The notes under the pieces are model-generated. The model did not search any database, was not told the origin of the DNA, and saw nothing but the letters and a program-made list of their open reading frames with translations. Of a stretch of DNA of 32,000 nt, positions 19,741-28,729 are shown piece by piece (position 1 is the stretch's first letter; the number at the start of each line of letters is the position of its first letter). The stretch is from NCBI GenBank assembly GCA_016840465.1, contig JAEOSH010000017.1:5506-37505 (forward strand), in the 5' to 3' direction. The stretch comes from Candidatus Baldrarchaeum yapensis (GTDB lineage Archaea > Asgardarchaeota > Baldrarchaeia > Baldrarchaeales > Baldrarchaeaceae). The translations under genes were made by a program, and so were the position numbers.

Positions 19741-20670
19741 ATGATGCTAAAGAACGTAATATTAATAACAATTGATTGCTTGAGACCCGATCATTTGAAC
19801 TGCTACGGATATAAGCGTATAACGTCTCCGTTTATAAGTTCATTAGCGCGAACCGGCTGGATTTTCACAAATTTCTTTGCAAACTCTTCTTACACGTGTG
19901 CATCAATAGCCTCAATGATCACCAGCACATATCCCTTTGACTACGGCGAGTACCTCGAGTTCTCCACACCCGCAAGATTGTCTAAAAAGAGACTATTATT
20001 ATCAGAAGTTTTGAAAAAGTACGGCTACTCAACGGCATTCTTTCACGATAACCCGTACTTATCACCAATATTCGGCTACAACAGGGGATTTGATGTTTGT
20101 ATAGACTTTGGAAGAAAGGTGCTCAGTAGCATTAGATCCAAAAGAAGATTCCTCAATTTAATGTTCAAAAATAAGAAGATACAAGATCTGCTCTGGAAGA
20201 TAAAGGATTTCGTCCTTCTGATAGATTGGTTCATACGAGGAAAACCTATACGGACCGATGCCGAAACAATATTGCGAGAAGCTTATAAGTGGTCACGGAA
20301 GGCTAGCCGACCCTTCTTCCTCTGGATGCACCTCATGGATACTCACATACCGTATTCACCCAAGCATGAGGTGCTCAAACAATTCGGTATAAGCAAGCTC
20401 AGAGCCGCCATGATACTGTACAAACAGATATTCAGGAAGAATATTTCAAAAGAAGAAGTACGTCTGGTAAAACTATTATACGACTCTCAGATATATCAAA
20501 TCGACCAGGCATTGGCAAAATATCTGCCTAAGATGGTCAATCACGACTTCGAAGATACTTACATAATAATTACAGCAGATCACGGAGAAGAGTTCTTCGA
20601 AAACGGAAGAATAGGGCACTCAGGCGTCTTAACTGATACGCTACTACGCGTGCCACTGATAATATGTGGT
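19741..20670 (+). pseudogene. Sulfatase-like (alkaline phosphatase superfamily) gene, 5' part, interrupted by IS607 element 1
   Basis: ITIDCLRPDH, FFLWMHLMDTHIPY, YDSQI, TADHGEEF, GH, LRVPLII; continues after the IS. Confidence 0.85.
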
Positions 20671-20730
20671 GGGCTGAAACGTATAGTGTTGCATTCGTAG
20701 CATTTAAGTACTTTTGTTGCATCAGATGAT

Positions 20731-21345
20731 GTGATGACAAAATTATATAGAACTGGGAAGGTTGCGGAGATTCTTGGAGTAAATAGAGTTACGGTAATTA
20801 GGTGGATTAAGCAAGGTAAGATTAAAGCGGTGAGAGTTGGTAAAGAGTATAGGATTCCAGAAGATGAAGTGAAAAGATTACTTAAAGGTAAGGTTATTAA
20901 TACAGCGGTTATTTATGCTCGTGTGAGTTCTTCAGACCAAAGGAGCGATTTGGAGAGGCAAGTTGAATATCTTAAGGAGTATTGCACAGCTAGAGGATAC
21001 AATGTAGTTGGTATTCTAGCAGATATTGCTTCTGGATTAAATGAAAAGCGAAGAGGTTTGAAAAAGCTGTTTGAATACGTTGTAAACGGAAAGGTTGACG
21101 TTGTAGTAATCAGCTACAAGGATAGACTTACGAGATTTGGGTTCAGGTATTTAGAAGAGTTCTTCAACTCACATGGAGTTAGAATTGAAGTCGTTTTCGG
21201 AGAAGAACCTAAGGATTTACAGCAAGAGCTAATTGAAGACTTAATTGCCATTGTAACATCATTTGCTGGTCGATTATACGGAATGAGAAGTCATAAAAAG
21301 AAGAAGGTGGTAGAGAGTGTCAAGCAAGCGATCAGAGACTGTTAA
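20731..21345 (+). CDS. tnpA: IS607 transposase TnpA (MerR-like HTH + serine recombinase)
   Basis: LYRTGKVAEILGV HTH, IYARVSS catalytic Ser, [25 protein letters not shown]. Confidence 0.95.
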   Translation: MMTKLYRTGKVAEILGVNRVTVIRWIKQGKIKAVRVGKEYRIPEDEVKRLLKGKVINTAVIYARVSSSDQRSDLERQVEYLKEYCTARGYNVVGILADIASGLNEKRRGLKKLFEYVVNGKVDVVVISYKDRLTRFGFRYLEEFFNSHGVRIEVVFGEEPKDLQQELIEDLIAIVTSFAGRLYGMRSHKKKKVVESVKQAIRDC

Positions 21346-22627
21346 ACTCACGGCAAGGTTCAAACTCGATGGTGAAGTAGATGAGAGACTGTTCGAAACG
21401 TACAAACGGATTGTCAATGAATTGTTGGATTACGCTCATTCCAAAGGAATTACCTCGTTCAAGAGACTGAAGTCCGAAAAATATCACGAGTTGAGGCAAG
21501 AGTACCCCGAATTGCCGTCTCATTACATTTACACGGCGTGCCAGATGGCTTGCTCCATCTATAAGTCGTTTAGAAAGCTTAAAAGAAAGGGAAAGACAAA
21601 ATCCGAAAAACCATTACTAAGGAAAGATGTAATTATGCTTGATGACCACCTGTTTAAGCTAGACTTGGAAAAATGGAAAGTCAGAATTTCTGTTCCCGAT
21701 GGAAAATTGGAGTTTAAGCTTTTGCATGGAGAGTATCACGAGAGATTTAAGGACTGGAAGGTCGGTCAGGCATGGCTGGTCAGAAAGCCTGACGGAGTTT
21801 ATCTGAACGTAGTATTCTCAAAGAATGTCGAGATGCTACATTGTGTGGATGTCATAGGTGTTGACGTGAACGAAAACAACATTACTGTTGCGACCAATCG
21901 GGGCTTTGTGAACTTTGGGACGAGAGAAAGGGTAATTAGAACCGCTTACTTCCTGAAGAGAAGGAGAATCCAAACCAAGATTAAGAGCAAGAGGGTTAAA
22001 GCTAGGATTTTGGCAAAATATCGTGATAGGGAAAGAAACAGGGTTCTGGACATTTACCATAAAGTTGCTAATGAAATTGTCAGATTGGCATTAAAAATGA
22101 GGTCTGCAATAGCCCTAGAAAGTCTCAAAGAAATAAGGAGTAGGATAAACTACTCAAAGGAGCTGAACGGAAGGTTGCATAGATGGAGTTTCAGGAGATT
22201 TCAACAAATATTGGAGTACAAGGCTAAACTCAATGGTATTGCGGTTATTTATGTCGATCCTCACAAAACCTCCCGCCTCTGCCCGATATGTGGGAGGAAG
22301 CTAAGCCCGAATGGGCGGAGGCGGTTGAAGTGCGAATGCGGGCTGGTTGCTGATAGAGATGTCATCGGTAGTTGGAATATCAGATTGAGAGGTTTGAGAT
22401 CTTTAAAGATAGATGTGGGGAGCACCGTTCCCCCCGAAAGCCCGTCGATGAACCCCGAGACGGGAAGACTCTCCGCTACACATGCATCAAAAGTTGTGAA
22501 AGTAGCGGAGAGTCAGAACGGGTTTAAAGCACAAAGTGATCGACATAAAGGCATCCCTAATAGACCTTGCACCCACAATATTGGATCTTCTCGGATTGAA
22601 AATTCCACGCCGCTTCAAAGGAACTAG
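21317..22627 (+). CDS. tnpB: TnpB RNA-guided endonuclease with intact RuvC triad; ORF reads 35 codons past the element end
   Basis: RuvC-I GVDVN, RuvC-II ALESL, zinc finger CPICG...CECG, RuvC-III ADRDVIGSWN. Confidence 0.93.
   Translation: MSSKRSETVKLTARFKLDGEVDERLFETYKRIVNELLDYAHSKGITSFKRLKSEKYHELRQEYPELPSHYIYTACQMACSIYKSFRKLKRKGKTKSEKPLLRKDVIMLDDHLFKLDLEKWKVRISVPDGKLEFKLLHGEYHERFKDWKVGQAWLVRKPDGVYLNVVFSKNVEMLHCVDVIGVDVNENNITVATNRGFVNFGTRERVIRTAYFLKRRRIQTKIKSKRVKARILAKYRDRERNRVLDIYHKVANEIVRLALKMRSAIALESLKEIRSRINYSKELNGRLHRWSFRRFQQILEYKAKLNGIAVIYVDPHKTSRLCPICGRKLSPNGRRRLKCECGLVADRDVIGSWNIRLRGLRSLKIDVGSTVPPESPSMNPETGRLSATHASKVVKVAESQNGFKAQSDRHKGIPNRPCTHNIGSSRIENSTPLQRN
22412..22520 (+). ncRNA. 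Putative omegaRNA scaffold of element 1 (guide would be the flank from about 22521)
   Basis: Overlaps the tnpB 3' end; CCCGTC-GATGAACCCCGA-GACGGG stem-loop and a 13-bp perfect inverted repeat 22467-22479 / 22502-22514 next to the element end. Boundaries inferred. Confidence 0.65.
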
Positions 22628-24565: not shown

Positions 24566-25444
24566 TTACAGCATTGTTTCTTTTTCTTTAAAGCTTCCCC
24601 CATATAGAGATGAAATTCCCATTGATGTCACTATCATCGCCGCCCCTATGATTTGAGTAACTGTCAGTTTTTCAAACAGAAAAATGTACGCAAAGATGGC
24701 TGCCGCTACAGGTTCAAATAGGAATATTATTGCTGTTGCGGCCGGGCTAACGAACCTCTGACCATATACTTGGAGTATAAAGGCACCATCGCTGCACATG
24801 ATGCTCAAATAAAATATGAGCATCAGTATCGTCATGTCTATACCCTCCATTCCACCGCCTACAAGCATTGAGGGCACGAAGAACGCCAAGGCAGGAATCA
24901 TTTCAAAGAACGTGAAAACAATAGGATCCGTTTCACTAAACCTATCAACTATTATCACTTGGGCCGCCCATGCAATAGCACCCAGCAGAACAAGAGCATC
25001 ACCAATGCCGAACCCCCCCGCTGGCGCAGTTAGCAAATATAATCCTGTTATGGCAAGGAGCAGAGACACTGATAACTCAATGCTATATTTTCTCAAAACC
25101 ACAGCCGTGTATATGTGAACAAAGACTGCATTTAATCCCGTTATGAAAGCAGAGTTCGAAGCCGTAGTGTACCTAGTCCCCCATCCCTGAAGCCACAGGC
25201 CAATAGCATATGCAATACCGGCCAATAGACCTCCTCTGATCGATTGACGGGATATTCCTTGGTTCTTACGGGTGTAAATCACGTAAGGTAGTAGAAGAAT
25301 TAGAGCTATTAAACTTCTAGTCCACACATAGGTGTATTCGCTAATGCTCGAAACAACAACTTTTATTGCCGGAAATGAAGTCCCCCACAATACAGTCGTT
25401 GCGATCAGGGCAGCGACCCCTTTTGTTTTAGACATGCTTACCAC
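24566..25444 (-). CDS. DMT/EamA-family transporter
   Basis: LWGTSFPAIK, TTASNSAFITGL, GDALVLLGAIAWA, EPVAAAIFAYIFLFEKL; about 10 hydrophobic segments. Confidence 0.92.
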   Translation of the reverse strand: MVSMSKTKGVAALIATTVLWGTSFPAIKVVVSSISEYTYVWTRSLIALILLLPYVIYTRKNQGISRQSIRGGLLAGIAYAIGLWLQGWGTRYTTASNSAFITGLNAVFVHIYTAVVLRKYSIELSVSLLLAITGLYLLTAPAGGFGIGDALVLLGAIAWAAQVIIVDRFSETDPIVFTFFEMIPALAFFVPSMLVGGGMEGIDMTILMLIFYLSIMCSDGAFILQVYGQRFVSPAATAIIFLFEPVAAAIFAYIFLFEKLTVTQIIGAAMIVTSMGISSLYGGSFKEKETML

Positions 25445-25619
25445 CGCATAAAGCGATAACTCTCATGTTAGCATCAACCTTTCTGCGTGTTATTTCATAG
25501 AACACTCTCTGAAACTCTTTGAAGTTTACCGTCAGAGGGGGCCCACCAAAAGGTTGTCATTCGTCAAGCCTTACACTTCAATCGTCCCCGCTTTATGCGC
25601 TCAAGGATCCGCTAGCGCC

Positions 25620-25808
25620 CAAGGGGTTCAGCGGATGTCCGCATTGATGAGCAGACATCCGCCTTGGGACGCATCAACCTCAACTCCCTCGGGGTTCATC
25701 GGGAGTAAATCATCGGTCTCGCCCCCTTTCGGGGTAACCCCTCTCCTTCTCAGGATTGGCTCGATTAATTCGAGCCAAACCTTCATTGAAGGAGGAAAAC
25801 CCCACATC
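25620..25808 (-). ncRNA. Putative omegaRNA scaffold of element 2
   Basis: Begins GATGTGGGG like element 1; hairpins 25756-25778 and 25723-25734 (GAAA loop), ACTCCC-GATGAACCCCGA-GGGAGT, terminal 12-bp stem 25631-25662 closed by CCCAAGG/CCTTGGG. Confidence 0.65.
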
Positions 25809-26576
25809 GTTTGTCCCTCTTATACTCCACTTTTTAAGCCAATACTTAATAGTAGTTCTATGGACTCCAAGCTTTTTGGCAAGTTCATTCAAAGTTAACC
25901 CTTGTCTTAAATATTCAACAAGCCTATCCTTGTCTACAGCCCCTCTTCTATAAGGCTTTCTGATTACTTGCATATTACCAAGTAATTCTTGAAGCTTTTG
26001 TTTACGGGTCTTATTCTTCATGTAATTGATAACCTTTCTACCCAACCTTATTATGTCCCTTTTTCTATAGATGGAAAGAGCGAATTCTGCTCCATTTTTG
26101 TGAACACATGGATGATAGTTATACTTAAGTAACTTGCATCTCATCTTCTCTAGCCATGTCTTATCGGTGTTTAATATTCGTATCTCGCCCTCCCCAGTTT
26201 TAATACGTTTGCGGAACCTTATATTTCCATCACCATCTATTGCTCCTGCTATGTATGCGTATAATTCCTCCTCATTTTCGGGTACACTTTTCTTTGAAGA
26301 AAGTAAGAACTCAAATGATGGGTCTAATATAGCGTATCTATAGCTCATCGGAAGTCCAGTCTTTTTGTCTATAGTGTCTGTAGAATTTACCTTAGTGTAC
26401 TTACCAAAAACTTCTTCAAAAATCTCTAAAATCTCCTGTCAGGTACTTCCTACAATCACTTCAATTTGTTCTCCTAATCGTCTCACGAAAATGTCTGTAG
26501 CACAGAGCCCCATCATGTAAGCTCTTTCAACCATATCTGGTGGCGCTATCTTTTTTGTTATGTTACTTCTAGCCAT
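25710..26576 (-). pseudogene. Two-motif LAGLIDADG homing endonuclease with C-terminal HTH; in-frame TGA at codon 46
   Basis: ATG 26576 after GGAGGTG; motif 1 RAYMMGLCATD, motif 2 YAYIAGAIDGDGNI; HTH GLTLNELAKKLGVHRTTIKYWL; stop at 26439-26441; the 212-aa ORF 25710-26348 is the downstream part. Confidence 0.8.
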
Positions 26577-27715
26577 GTTACACCTCCTCTATCAAGTAAC
26601 CTTTTCACGTATTTCCATGAATTTAGGCATGGTTTCATATCTTTCATCCTTAGGTATAAGTTTATAGAAGCATTCAACTGTCTGTTAATAATCAACCTAC
26701 ACTTAATACATTCCAAAACCTGCCCCTTTCGGTGCTTCATTCTTCCACCACATCTGGAGCAGATTTTAGTTGAATTACGAGGATCTAACAACTTTACATT
26801 AGCTTTATAACTCATTAGAGCTATTATCTGCTTCCAATTTTGTTTAGAAACAACTCTATTGTGTATTTTACATTTACCAAACATTCCCTGCTTTTCTAAG
26901 TTCTCAAATCCATGCTCGTAATCTTTGAACTCTTTAGCGAGCTTAGTTGTTAGCTTATGTAGAAAATCTTTAACTCTATTTCTGTATCTTTGAGAATACT
27001 TCTGCATAAGCCTTTTAGCAGTTTTTGGCTTAGTTTTACTCAAGCTCTGGATTTTTCTTCTCTTGTTCTCATAAGTTATGTGTAAAGTGTATAGTGGTTT
27101 TAAGTTCACTCTAATCCATCCTCTATCGCAAAATCCGTCCATGCTAAGCAGATTTAGATCCCAAGCAATTTTCTTCTTTGGAGTATAATTAACGGGTTTT
27201 CTGAACGTTATAATTAACTCATTCTCCTTGAGTATTAACTCTCCTAAATCGCAACCTTCAACTCTTTTCCTGAACCAAGCTTTTGACAGGTCAAATTCAA
27301 GATAAAGCTGACGAGGTCTTATCGTAATTACGATTTTCTCATCTCTGAATCTGTAAAGTGTTTCTTTTACTCTGACGAACTTCCTTTTTACTACAGGTTT
27401 ATTTCTTCCCCTCTTTCCTTTGATGTAATTCCTCCTCCACGAGCTTAAAATTGAATAAGCAGTTTTTATTGCTGAATCTACGTAATGTGATGCGTAATTC
27501 CAATCTTTAAGCAATTGATTTCTTAAAGTTCTTTTAAATTCTTTAGATTTTGGAATTATTGGAATTAACCTATTTCTCTTCTTTTTCCATTCTATGCTGT
27601 CCCAAATTATATCTATCGCTCTTTGTAGAAGATACCTGTAGCTACTTAAAAATTCGCTTATATCGTAGTCGTGTCTTACTTTGTAGCTAACAATCCTGTA
27701 TGAGTTTCTTTGCAC
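26558..27715 (-). CDS. tnpB: TnpB of element 2 (RuvC-III Asp replaced by Gln; substituted C-terminus)
   Basis: RuvC-I AWDLN, RuvC-II GFENL, zinc finger CSRCG...CIKC, Ruv[13 protein letters not shown]. Confidence 0.9.
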
Positions 27716-28295
27716 CTTCTACCACCTTCTTATACTTGTGTGATCTCATTCCATACAACTTACCAGCAAAATGAGATATTATCGTGATTAAATCTTCGAT
27801 TAGCTCTTCTTGTGGCGATTTTTCTTCTTTATTTATAACTACTATCTCTGTTCCGTAACTCTTGAAGAATTCCTCTAAAATCTTAAATCCAAATCTCGTT
27901 AACCTGTCTGGATACGCTATAACGACCTTAGAAACCTCCTTGTTCATAACCATTTTTAGCAGTTTTTGAAAATTCCTCCTATCTTCTTTCAACCCAGAAC
28001 CTACATCTTTGAGAATTTCTATTTCCCATCCTCTTTCCTTCGCATAACGTCTTATTAGCTCTATTTGTCTCTCTAAATCATCCTTTTGAGTATGAGATGA
28101 AACCCTCGCATAACCCACTATCTTCCTTTCTTCGTGAATCCCTAAAATTCGCTTTATTTCTGATTCGGGAACTCTCCTCTTTCCACCTACAGTTCTGACA
28201 CACCTAATCTTCCCTTCCTTATCCCACCTCTGAATAGTCTTAACGTGAACTCCAAGCAACTTAGATGCCTCTTTTAGTGTGTATAACTTTTCCAT
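27687..28295 (-). CDS. tnpA: IS607 transposase TnpA of element 2
   Basis: [32 protein letters not shown] catalytic Ser, [24 protein letters not shown]. Confidence 0.95.
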
Positions 28296-28300
28296 GTTTA

Positions 28301-28377
28301 CTCACTAATACTCTCAAATGCTCACCAAATACTTAACTGTCTCGCACGGCAAGAGTTTGCGTTCTCAAACTCAAATG
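28301..28377 (-). repeat. Left-end direct repeats of element 2 (putative TnpA binding sites)
   Basis: Plus strand CTCACTAATA / CTCTCAAATG / CTCACCAAATA at 28301, 28311 and 28321, plus CTCAAAC / TCAAATG at 28364-28377. Confidence 0.55.
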
Positions 28378-28411
28378 TATGACCTTAAATAGTGTTCCCA
28401 CACACCACTAA

Positions 28412-28729
28412 ATGGTGGACGCAATGCCGTCAGCAGCCCACGAGGAGCGGGACCTTATAGAGGAACTCCTAGAGGAAGAGTGGAGAAAACGGCGGGCGAG
28501 GGTCGTGGAAACCCGAAAGATGGAAGTCGACGATATCATCATCTTCTCAATCGTGAAACTTAACCACCGGGTGAGCACCCTCTCCGGAAAATTAGATAAC
28601 CTATCGGCGGAGGTCGCATCCCTAAAGAACGATGTAAAGCTGCTGAAGACCGTCGTCCTCGGAATAATCCTCCCCATCCTCATCGCAATCGTCTCAATCC
28701 TCGTCACGATCCTCCTAAAAATCTCGTGA
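28412..28729 (+). CDS. Small coiled-coil protein with C-terminal transmembrane helix, function unknown
   Basis: Heptad segment LNHRVSTLSGKLDNLSAEVASLKNDVKLLK followed by hydrophobic VVLGIILPILIAIVSILVTILL. Confidence 0.6.
   Translation: MVDAMPSAAHEERDLIEELLEEEWRKRRARVVETRKMEVDDIIIFSIVKLNHRVSTLSGKLDNLSAEVASLKNDVKLLKTVVLGIILPILIAIVSILVTILLKIS

Follow-up and report, generated by a model that had tools for sequence, protein, structure and literature searches.

The DNA analysed here, a 32,000-nucleotide (nt) stretch of the Candidatus Baldrarchaeum yapensis contig JAEOSH010000017.1 (hereafter the window), carries an IS607-family transposon, element 2, whose tnpB gene is interrupted by an 840-bp cassette. 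The cassette encodes a LAGLIDADG protein with a C-terminal helix-turn-helix (HTH) domain, and sits where TnpB's RuvC domain ends and the scaffold of the transposon's omegaRNA begins. This nested arrangement, first described in an earlier note made from the letters of the window, is confirmed. We conclude that the insert is probably a free-standing LAGLIDADG homing-endonuclease cassette that invades tnpB genes within a single archaeal IS607 clade. The reading builds on the anatomy of the insert, the fold of its product, an insertion site shared among loci, selection on the gene, and the presence or absence of the cassette in close relatives. Three features (window positions) define the interrupted gene:

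25805 to 26644 (equivalently 25809 to 26648), minus strand: the 840-bp homing-endonuclease cassette, absent from close tnpB homologues.
26645 to 27715, minus strand: tnpB core, residues 1-357, ending ...INLYLRM (M357, last base 26645), identified by Pfam and by homologues.
25628 to 25807, minus strand: the displaced native TnpB tail, an open reading frame (ORF) encoding MWGFPPSMKVW...INADIR and a stop; it matches insert-free TnpB tails, is now untranslated and overlaps the scaffold.

Relatives lacking the insert define its edges. Removing the cassette joins ...INLYLRM in frame to WGFPPSMKVWLELIEPILRR...PMNPEG..., the downstream part being the ORF at 25807..25628, and the earlier note had predicted that insert-free genes would end in this way. 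They do: a homologue search recovered 480 TnpB relatives at E<=1e-10, and the nearest insert-free ones (P0007-P0025; 84-87% identical, mostly 416 amino acids) read ...INLYLRMWGFPPSMKVWLELIEPILRRSGVT...PMNPEG.... Six insert-free elements also align straight through the junction with 80-87% nucleotide identity: three (L013, L014, L017) belong to genomes of the host's phylum and three (L022, L023, L025) to metagenomes. GATG stands at both cassette junctions and gives five equivalent placements, of which the GATG-bounded segment originally proposed, 25809-26648, is one. The motif GATGTGGGG was also correctly said to be shared with element 1, a second IS607 in the window, where it lies at 22412-22420. 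A contig search across the whole host genome found no second copy of the cassette.

The same site is occupied in other elements. Close homologues of the endonuclease are rare and form one cluster at 50% identity, made up of four proteins found by word search and two loci found by contig scans. All of them lie in tnpB at the insertion point seen in the window, which adds five further independent loci (L006, L007, L008, L009 and L011) and thereby bears out the shared site that the earlier note had proposed as a check:

L006: endonuclease 99% identical to that of the window; 5' junction the same as in the window.
L010: endonuclease 99% identical; another assembly of the chromosomal locus seen in the window.
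L011: endonuclease 92% identical; junctions the same.
L007: endonuclease 73% identical; junctions the same.
L008: endonuclease 70% identical; junctions the same.
L009: endonuclease 63% identical; a different TnpB subclade, with ...YLKM before the junction and AGGGTTTTCC on its 3' side.

The TnpBs that host these cassettes span at least three variants of the RuvC-III motif (NRQLNAS, DRQLNAS and DRQFCGA). Past its 3' junction (L006:1267-1325), L006 has no scaffold; about 55 nt resembling the left end of element 1 (window ~20664-20720) are followed by unrelated sequence. This could be a second IS607, nested or fragmentary, inserted at the GATGTGGGG site, or else the contig is chimeric.

On its downstream side the cassette abuts the folded part of the omegaRNA:

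25623 to 25804, minus strand: omegaRNA scaffold (right-end RNA), intact, from an RNAalifold consensus.

In an alignment of 10 sequences, six insert-free elements and the 3' sides of four occupied ones, RNAalifold gives a consensus of 47 pairs, of which 15 show compensatory double changes. Pairing starts 3 nt past the junction, with none predicted in the 47 columns upstream, which places the cassette at the 5' edge of the folded scaffold and upholds the view that the insert leaves the scaffold intact. Consistent with this boundary, third-codon variation ends at about CCTAAGGATG, and from there to ...TGAACCCC (25623) the sequence is conserved or covarying. A structured right-end RNA that overlaps the tnpB 3' end is the arrangement of OMEGA systems, and the scaffold matched no Rfam family. 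The insertion had been described as lying between tnpB and its omegaRNA. This stands for the 5' edge of the RNA structure but not for the end of the native ORF, which in insert-free copies extends 59 codons through the scaffold. Elsewhere in the host genome, contig C6:5901-6059 (L019/L021) carries one more omegaRNA-like scaffold, with 71-89% identity to 25620-25808.

The gene within the cassette begins inside the end of the tnpB frame:

25710 to 26576, minus strand: endonuclease ORF with two LAGLIDADG motifs and an HTH, by translation; broken by a TGA, its own stop lost.
26581 to 26587, minus strand: GGAGGTG, the putative ribosome-binding site of the endonuclease gene, read from the sequence inside the GGV codons of the cassette-encoded TnpB tail.

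The ORF starts at 26576, six bases past GGAGGTG, overlapping the end of the tnpB frame (stop 26560-26558), and each of the five distinct cassettes has this ATG at offset 68 from the junction. At the other end it reads past the junction for 33 codons, stop counted, to a TGA at 25712-25710, as had been noted. That the gene has no stop of its own is true of the window, L006, L010 and L011 but not of L007, L008 and L009, where it stops 8-18 nt ahead of the junction. In the window an in-frame TGA interrupts it at 26441-26439 (codon 46), where the other copies have CGA, among them the 99%-identical P0002 (Arg). At the same chromosomal locus, L010 has CGA at codon 46 but a frameshifting 7-nt tandem duplication (gctatag) at L010:3755-3775. 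The TGA and the duplication are two independent inactivating lesions, such as would be expected late in a homing cycle, when the endonuclease gene has run out of empty sites.

By its motifs and its modelled fold, the encoded protein would be a two-motif monomeric LAGLIDADG homing endonuclease. Motif 1 reads MMGLCATDI (D28) and motif 2 IAGAIDGDG (D116), with an acidic residue at motif position 8 in both. D28 is kept in at least 90% of 43 relatives. At the position of D116 the family consensus has D or E, and D116 lines up with the catalytic E in the 'AEG' of I-AniI. The AlphaFold 2 (AF2) model, with a predicted local distance difference test score (pLDDT) of 92.8 and a predicted template modelling score (pTM) of 0.81, shows two alpha-beta-beta-alpha-beta-beta-alpha domains (H-E-E-H-E-E-H twice) followed by a three-helix C-terminal HTH. 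Foldseek gives probability 1.00 for the model against I-DmoI, I-Tsp061I, I-AniI and I-WcaI; the best matches are E-DreI/I-DmoI, I-MsoI, the bI3 maturase, I-Tsp061I, I-AniI and WhiA.

Sequence comparison agrees once enough relatives are included. The single sequence matches Pfam HTH_28 (2.8e-06) and scores 21.7 bits against LAGLIDADG_3, just below the 22.5 cut-off, and a profile of the five family members found only HTH noise among PDB sequences. The deeper, 43-sequence profile was needed: it matches the solved LAGLIDADG enzymes I-AniI (7e-11) and PI-PfuI (8.6e-11), as well as I-CreI, I-OnuI and I-Tsp061I. With an exhaustive profile-free search, 443 distant relatives emerged at about 30% identity, and the ones inspected proved to be LAGLIDADG_1/_3 proteins, often carrying HTH arrays. 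P0126, the nearest outgroup at 41% identity, is encoded by a free-standing gene next to a DNA-ligase gene and has its HTH at the N-terminus. No relative was found among the viral contigs searched.

Ahead of the endonuclease gene, the cassette seems to give TnpB a new end:

26558 to 26644, minus strand: putative cassette-supplied TnpB C-terminus, 28 codons plus stop, recognised by its open frame and by selection.

As read in the window, the tnpB frame runs from 27715 for 385 amino acids, and the first 28 cassette codons appear to be a selected, native-like replacement for the TnpB C-terminus. The tnpB frame of this tail is open in 5/5 distinct cassettes. Its ratio of nonsynonymous to synonymous polymorphism (pN/pS) is 0.36, lower than in the two alternative frames (0.63 and 0.78), both of which contain stops. 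Such constraint in the tnpB frame implies that unspliced RNA is translated. The substitute and the native tail are collinear over the latter's first 24 residues (P..., W..., L-x-R-x-G-V-T), MAFFT aligns the two in the same register, and 21 of 2000 column shuffles score as high. The AF2 model of TnpB (mean pLDDT 88.5) places a helix at residues 364-377 (pLDDT 78-90).

The endonuclease gene itself is also under purifying selection, with pN/pS of 0.11-0.28 and an open frame in five lineages (L006-L009 and L011). Its distribution is that of a homing gene, with six independent loci at one site and empty alleles 84-90% identical. The occupied flanks do not form one clade (approximately unbiased (AU) test, p=0.010): in a tree of 100 nt upstream and up to 186 nt downstream (286 columns), the window pairs with insert-free L022 with support 89/97. 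L022 matches the window at 88.3% of nucleotides in tnpB and 89.8% in the scaffold, whereas L011, the nearest occupied element, does so at 89.4% and 85.3%. Overall, L022 (88-90%) stands as near to the window as L011 does (85-91%). The insert-free L022 and the occupied L006 stem from one sample.

The earlier note offered a homing endonuclease parasitising an RNA-guided selfish element as one reading, and the insert-free tails, the shared site, the position at the scaffold edge and the double-LAGLIDADG fold with both catalytic acids support it. For its alternative, a composite element with two homing strategies, we find nothing beyond co-residence, and the predicted endonuclease site is tnpB, not the transposon's empty chromosomal site. 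For cleavage, target specificity and repair-mediated copying, we infer from the behaviour of the family. The two-motif endonuclease, aided by its C-terminal HTH, would recognise about 20-30 bp of ...CCTAAGGATG/TGGGGTTT... (slash, junction) in cassette-free tnpB. This stretch hardly varies, since it serves both as the end of the RuvC domain and as the start of the omegaRNA scaffold. The enzyme would cleave cassette-free tnpB at the junction, and repair off a cassette-bearing copy would copy the cassette in. Occupied copies would be immune, their recognition site being split. Harm to the host transposon would be limited in three ways: the first 28 codons would supply TnpB with a native-like tail and a stop codon; the endonuclease gene would start by translational coupling, from GGAGGTG within the tail and an ATG overlapping the tail's last codons; and the whole omegaRNA scaffold is spared downstream. 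The cassette would then travel along with the transposon.

A domesticated accessory gene could leave a similar pattern. Here the protein would have ceased to home and would serve the transposon as a DNA- or RNA-binding factor, acting as a regulator in the manner of WhiA or as an omegaRNA chaperone in the manner of a maturase; it would pass down vertically with the element, with occasional loss. Two LAGLIDADG domains followed by a C-terminal HTH are the architecture of WhiA (3hyi), and the bI3 maturase (2ab5), itself a LAGLIDADG protein, ranks high among the fold matches. Purifying selection across lineages, the similar extent to which endonuclease and TnpB have diverged, and the preservation of TnpB and scaffold by the cassette all suit this idea too. 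Yet both catalytic acidic residues are kept, and WhiA and LAGLIDADG maturases have lost theirs. Presence and absence alternate sharply among elements that are 88-90% identical, with occupied flanks outside any one clade, and one host lineage has acquired two independent inactivating lesions. A second, unrelated LAGLIDADG gene at another tnpB site (L008, L011, C55) looks like repeated parasitism rather than recruitment. We consider domestication unlikely.

Another possibility is that the cassette serves the transposon. It might be less a pure parasite than a stabilising module, in which the early tnpB end, with its functional new tail, and a TATA-like promoter uncouple guide-RNA production from destruction of the tnpB message; in a TnpB clade without the canonical third RuvC acid, the LAGLIDADG enzyme would then be the composite's only efficient DNA cutter. 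If so, the transposon would be spreading among its own copies by means of a protein homing endonuclease. We hold this to be quite improbable, and slimmer still is the chance of a mutualistic composite in which the cassette separates the tnpB frame from the omegaRNA, so that the tnpB message survives the making of the guide, supplies the guide promoter and, given the missing third RuvC acid of this TnpB clade, possibly provides the sole working DNA nuclease. The substitute tail and its stop do end tnpB 0.75 kb upstream of the scaffold, and TnpB processes its own mRNA into omegaRNA (PMC10278001), which counts in favour of such mutualism. So does a TATA-like sequence present about 20 nt before the scaffold in cassettes and empty copies alike:

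25819 to 25824, minus strand: TATA-like hexamer TATAAG, ~20 nt upstream of the scaffold start, read from the sequence.

Equally far from the scaffold stand ATATATAG in L007 and ATATATAA in L008, and insert-free copies have TATAAAC at a similar distance; the window coordinates given for TATA-like sequences are 25819-25824 and 26662-26668. The hexamer may be an internal archaeal promoter for the omegaRNA. How omegaRNA-type RNAs arise in archaea is unsettled (PMC4615843).

The catalytic residues of TnpB are also relevant to a beneficial cassette. The window TnpB has the D (IAWDLNL) and E (GFENLEK) of its RuvC domain but not the canonical D-E-D triad (D191, E278 and D361 in ISDra2). Its RuvC-III motif, at window 26661-26690 (TnpB residues ~343-352), is NRQLNAS. 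Among the 105 homologues in which the motif was found, Q aligns with the catalytic D361 of ISDra2, except for two that have H. Where ISDra2 has D359, the window clade has N (37 sequences, NR[Q/H]L) and the remaining homologues D, so that all 105 read [D/N]R[Q/H]L. That the TnpB family reads [D/N]RQL where ISDra2 has DRD with the catalytic D361 speaks for a mutualistic cassette: with the third canonical RuvC acid replaced, TnpB activity is uncertain, and the TnpBs of this family may be nuclease-dead or may use another acid. On the other hand, most copies of the clade do without a cassette (hundreds of TnpBs against six cassette loci), and the endonuclease is decaying in the window lineage. The predicted endonuclease site, moreover, is tnpB itself, so the enzyme could not replace TnpB in its proposed role at empty donor sites.

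An intron (archaeal bulge-helix-bulge or group I/II), excised from the transcript to restore full TnpB and RNA, must be weighed as well. Archaeal LAGLIDADG enzymes such as I-DmoI and I-Tsp061I, the closest folds, are intron-encoded, and removal of the insert is in frame. Archaeal bulge-helix-bulge introns have two 3-nt bulges, parted by a 4-bp helix, where exon and intron meet. We scanned five loci for both bulge arrangements within +/-10 nt and at +/-3 nt offset; a bulge-helix-bulge compatible with precise excision was found in 0/5, and the weak candidates are not conserved. No intron family matched in Rfam even at E<=10: the whole window at gathering score and 25400-28500 at E<=10 gave only chance-level hits to CRISPR-DR44 (E 2.2) and snoZ278 (E 6.7). 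The two junction rules of group I introns, a U ahead of the 5' splice site and a G as the intron's last base, cannot both hold in any of the five registers, and selection on the cassette-encoded tail in the tnpB frame implies translation of unspliced RNA. An intron is therefore very improbable. An intein was also considered and rejected: the endonuclease lies in another frame than tnpB, behind a stop codon. With neither intron nor intein, the cassette is of the free-standing type. Finally, fusion of two unrelated elements by the assembler can be dismissed, since the same junctions recur in six other independent assemblies (L010, with identical chromosomal flanks, L011 and L006-L009), although the window does come from a metagenome-assembled genome of 100 contigs; this clears the misassembly concern raised at the outset.

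Several points weigh against a homing cassette. The window's endonuclease gene is a pseudogene, so no activity is possible at this locus now. Only six independent loci are available, mostly on contigs of 1-1.5 kb; the occupied group in the AU test was defined after the loci had been inspected, and the data for it are short. The likeness of the substitute tail to the native one is modest, being reached by ~1% of shuffles, and the bulge-helix-bulge scan used our own, unvalidated script. The divergence of the endonuclease (63% identity between window and L009) resembles that of TnpB, which makes possible one old insertion followed by co-divergence and precise losses via gene conversion.

The transposon that carries the cassette has the layout of the IS607 type:

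25623 to 28397, minus strand: IS607-family element 2, including the nested cassette; right end by homologue comparison, left end approximate.
27687 to 28295, minus strand: tnpA, 202 amino acids, a serine recombinase with an N-terminal MerR-type HTH (IS607 type), apparently intact, identified by Pfam.

TnpA matches Resolvase (4e-28), HTH_17 (5.7e-13) and MerR (1.5e-10) in Pfam, TnpB matches OrfB_IS605 (3.1e-10) and Cas12f1-like_TNB (1.5e-10), and the two ORFs overlap at 27687-27715 in the manner of IS607 elements. The right end is 25623 (...TGAACCCC), where six homologous elements stop aligning. The left end lies within 28351-28397; 28397 is approximate, as likeness to other copies begins only near 28351, and the non-coding left ends are too diverged for definition by comparison with them. 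GC content is 33-37% in the 25.6-28.4 kb element against ~52% in its flanks. No empty chromosomal site of element 2 was found among the 30 related genomes searched. The host is an uncultured archaeon, represented by a 2.27-Mb metagenome-assembled genome that is 96% complete and the sole member of its family in the reference set.

Element 1 is a canonical IS607, with tnpA at 20731-21345 and, from 21317, a tnpB that has a DRD motif. It splits a sulfatase-like gene (window 19741-20700 and ~22500-22627): the last residues of the sulfatase-like ORF derive from the element's left end, and the C-terminus (LAPTILDLLGLKIPRRFKGTSLL) resumes beyond its right end.

The known settings of homing endonuclease genes are introns, inteins, and genes of phages or organelles. 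Here the host is itself a selfish element, a transposon with an RNA-guided nuclease, and the cassette would be a parasite of a parasite. Its chosen site is doubly constrained, as the end of a protein and the start of a guide RNA, and IS607 copies would form an allele population large and mobile enough for a homing cycle. The arrangement is also a natural experiment on TnpB, suggesting that the protein tolerates a 28-residue substitute for its native 59-residue tail, as well as an omegaRNA placed 0.75 kb away from where the tnpB ORF ends. The family further offers thermophilic meganucleases with a candidate target of ~25 bp as possible tools.

A literature search found no published account of an endonuclease gene inside tnpB; nearest are a review that treats OMEGA systems conceptually as 'homing endonucleases' (PMC13565253) and the work on IStrons. 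IStrons, which combine a group I intron with an IS605/IS607 tnpB (PMC4227781; bioRxiv 10.1101/2023.11.20.567912), are alike in fusing a second selfish element with a TnpB/omegaRNA transposon, and in both cases there is conflict or compromise at the omegaRNA boundary. In an IStron, however, the whole transposon is the intron and there is no protein homing endonuclease, whereas here an endonuclease gene lies within the transposon and there is no ribozyme.

Among LAGLIDADG enzymes, I-DmoI (2vs7) and I-Tsp061I (2dch) share the two-motif, single-chain double fold with an acid in both motifs, and come from thermophilic archaea. They are encoded in bulge-helix-bulge introns of rRNA genes, in contrast to the free-standing gene within a transposon protein gene described here, where no bulge-helix-bulge was found. 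The cassette endonuclease also has an extra C-terminal HTH, and its identity to them is only 12-16%. WhiA is likewise built of two LAGLIDADG domains and an HTH, and is among the fold matches, but it is a conserved bacterial chromosomal gene without catalytic acids; the cassette protein keeps D28 and D116 and is present or absent at one site.

Free-standing homing-endonuclease genes can bring a replacement 3' end with them, as in the C-terminal duplications of fungal mitochondrial atp6, cox and nad genes and in the intron-less homing of T-even phages. The cassette resembles these in lying near the 3' end of a gene, supplying a diverged C-terminus and stop, and displacing the resident 3' end. 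Unlike in those cases, the displaced 3' end is a functional guide-RNA scaffold, not a dead remnant, and the invaded gene belongs to a mobile element.

A related setting is another LAGLIDADG insertion into tnpB. At the first CxxC of the TnpB zinc finger, L011:1516-2103 and L008:1-312 carry a second two-motif LAGLIDADG gene (motifs AYILGVLLGDGTV and FIRGFYESEGSI), so that both loci hold both endonuclease genes. About 12-13 nt of tnpB are lost there, TnpB is truncated, and the 3' junction is again ..ATG/TGG. Contig C55 of the host genome (L027:1330-2103) encodes a 47%-identical relative of this zinc-finger gene, with an N-terminal HTH. The cassette differs from the zinc-finger type in its site, at the boundary between the RuvC end and the scaffold; in its unrelated endonuclease family, with a C-terminal HTH; and in its effect on the host gene, to which it brings a substitute tail where the other truncates TnpB.

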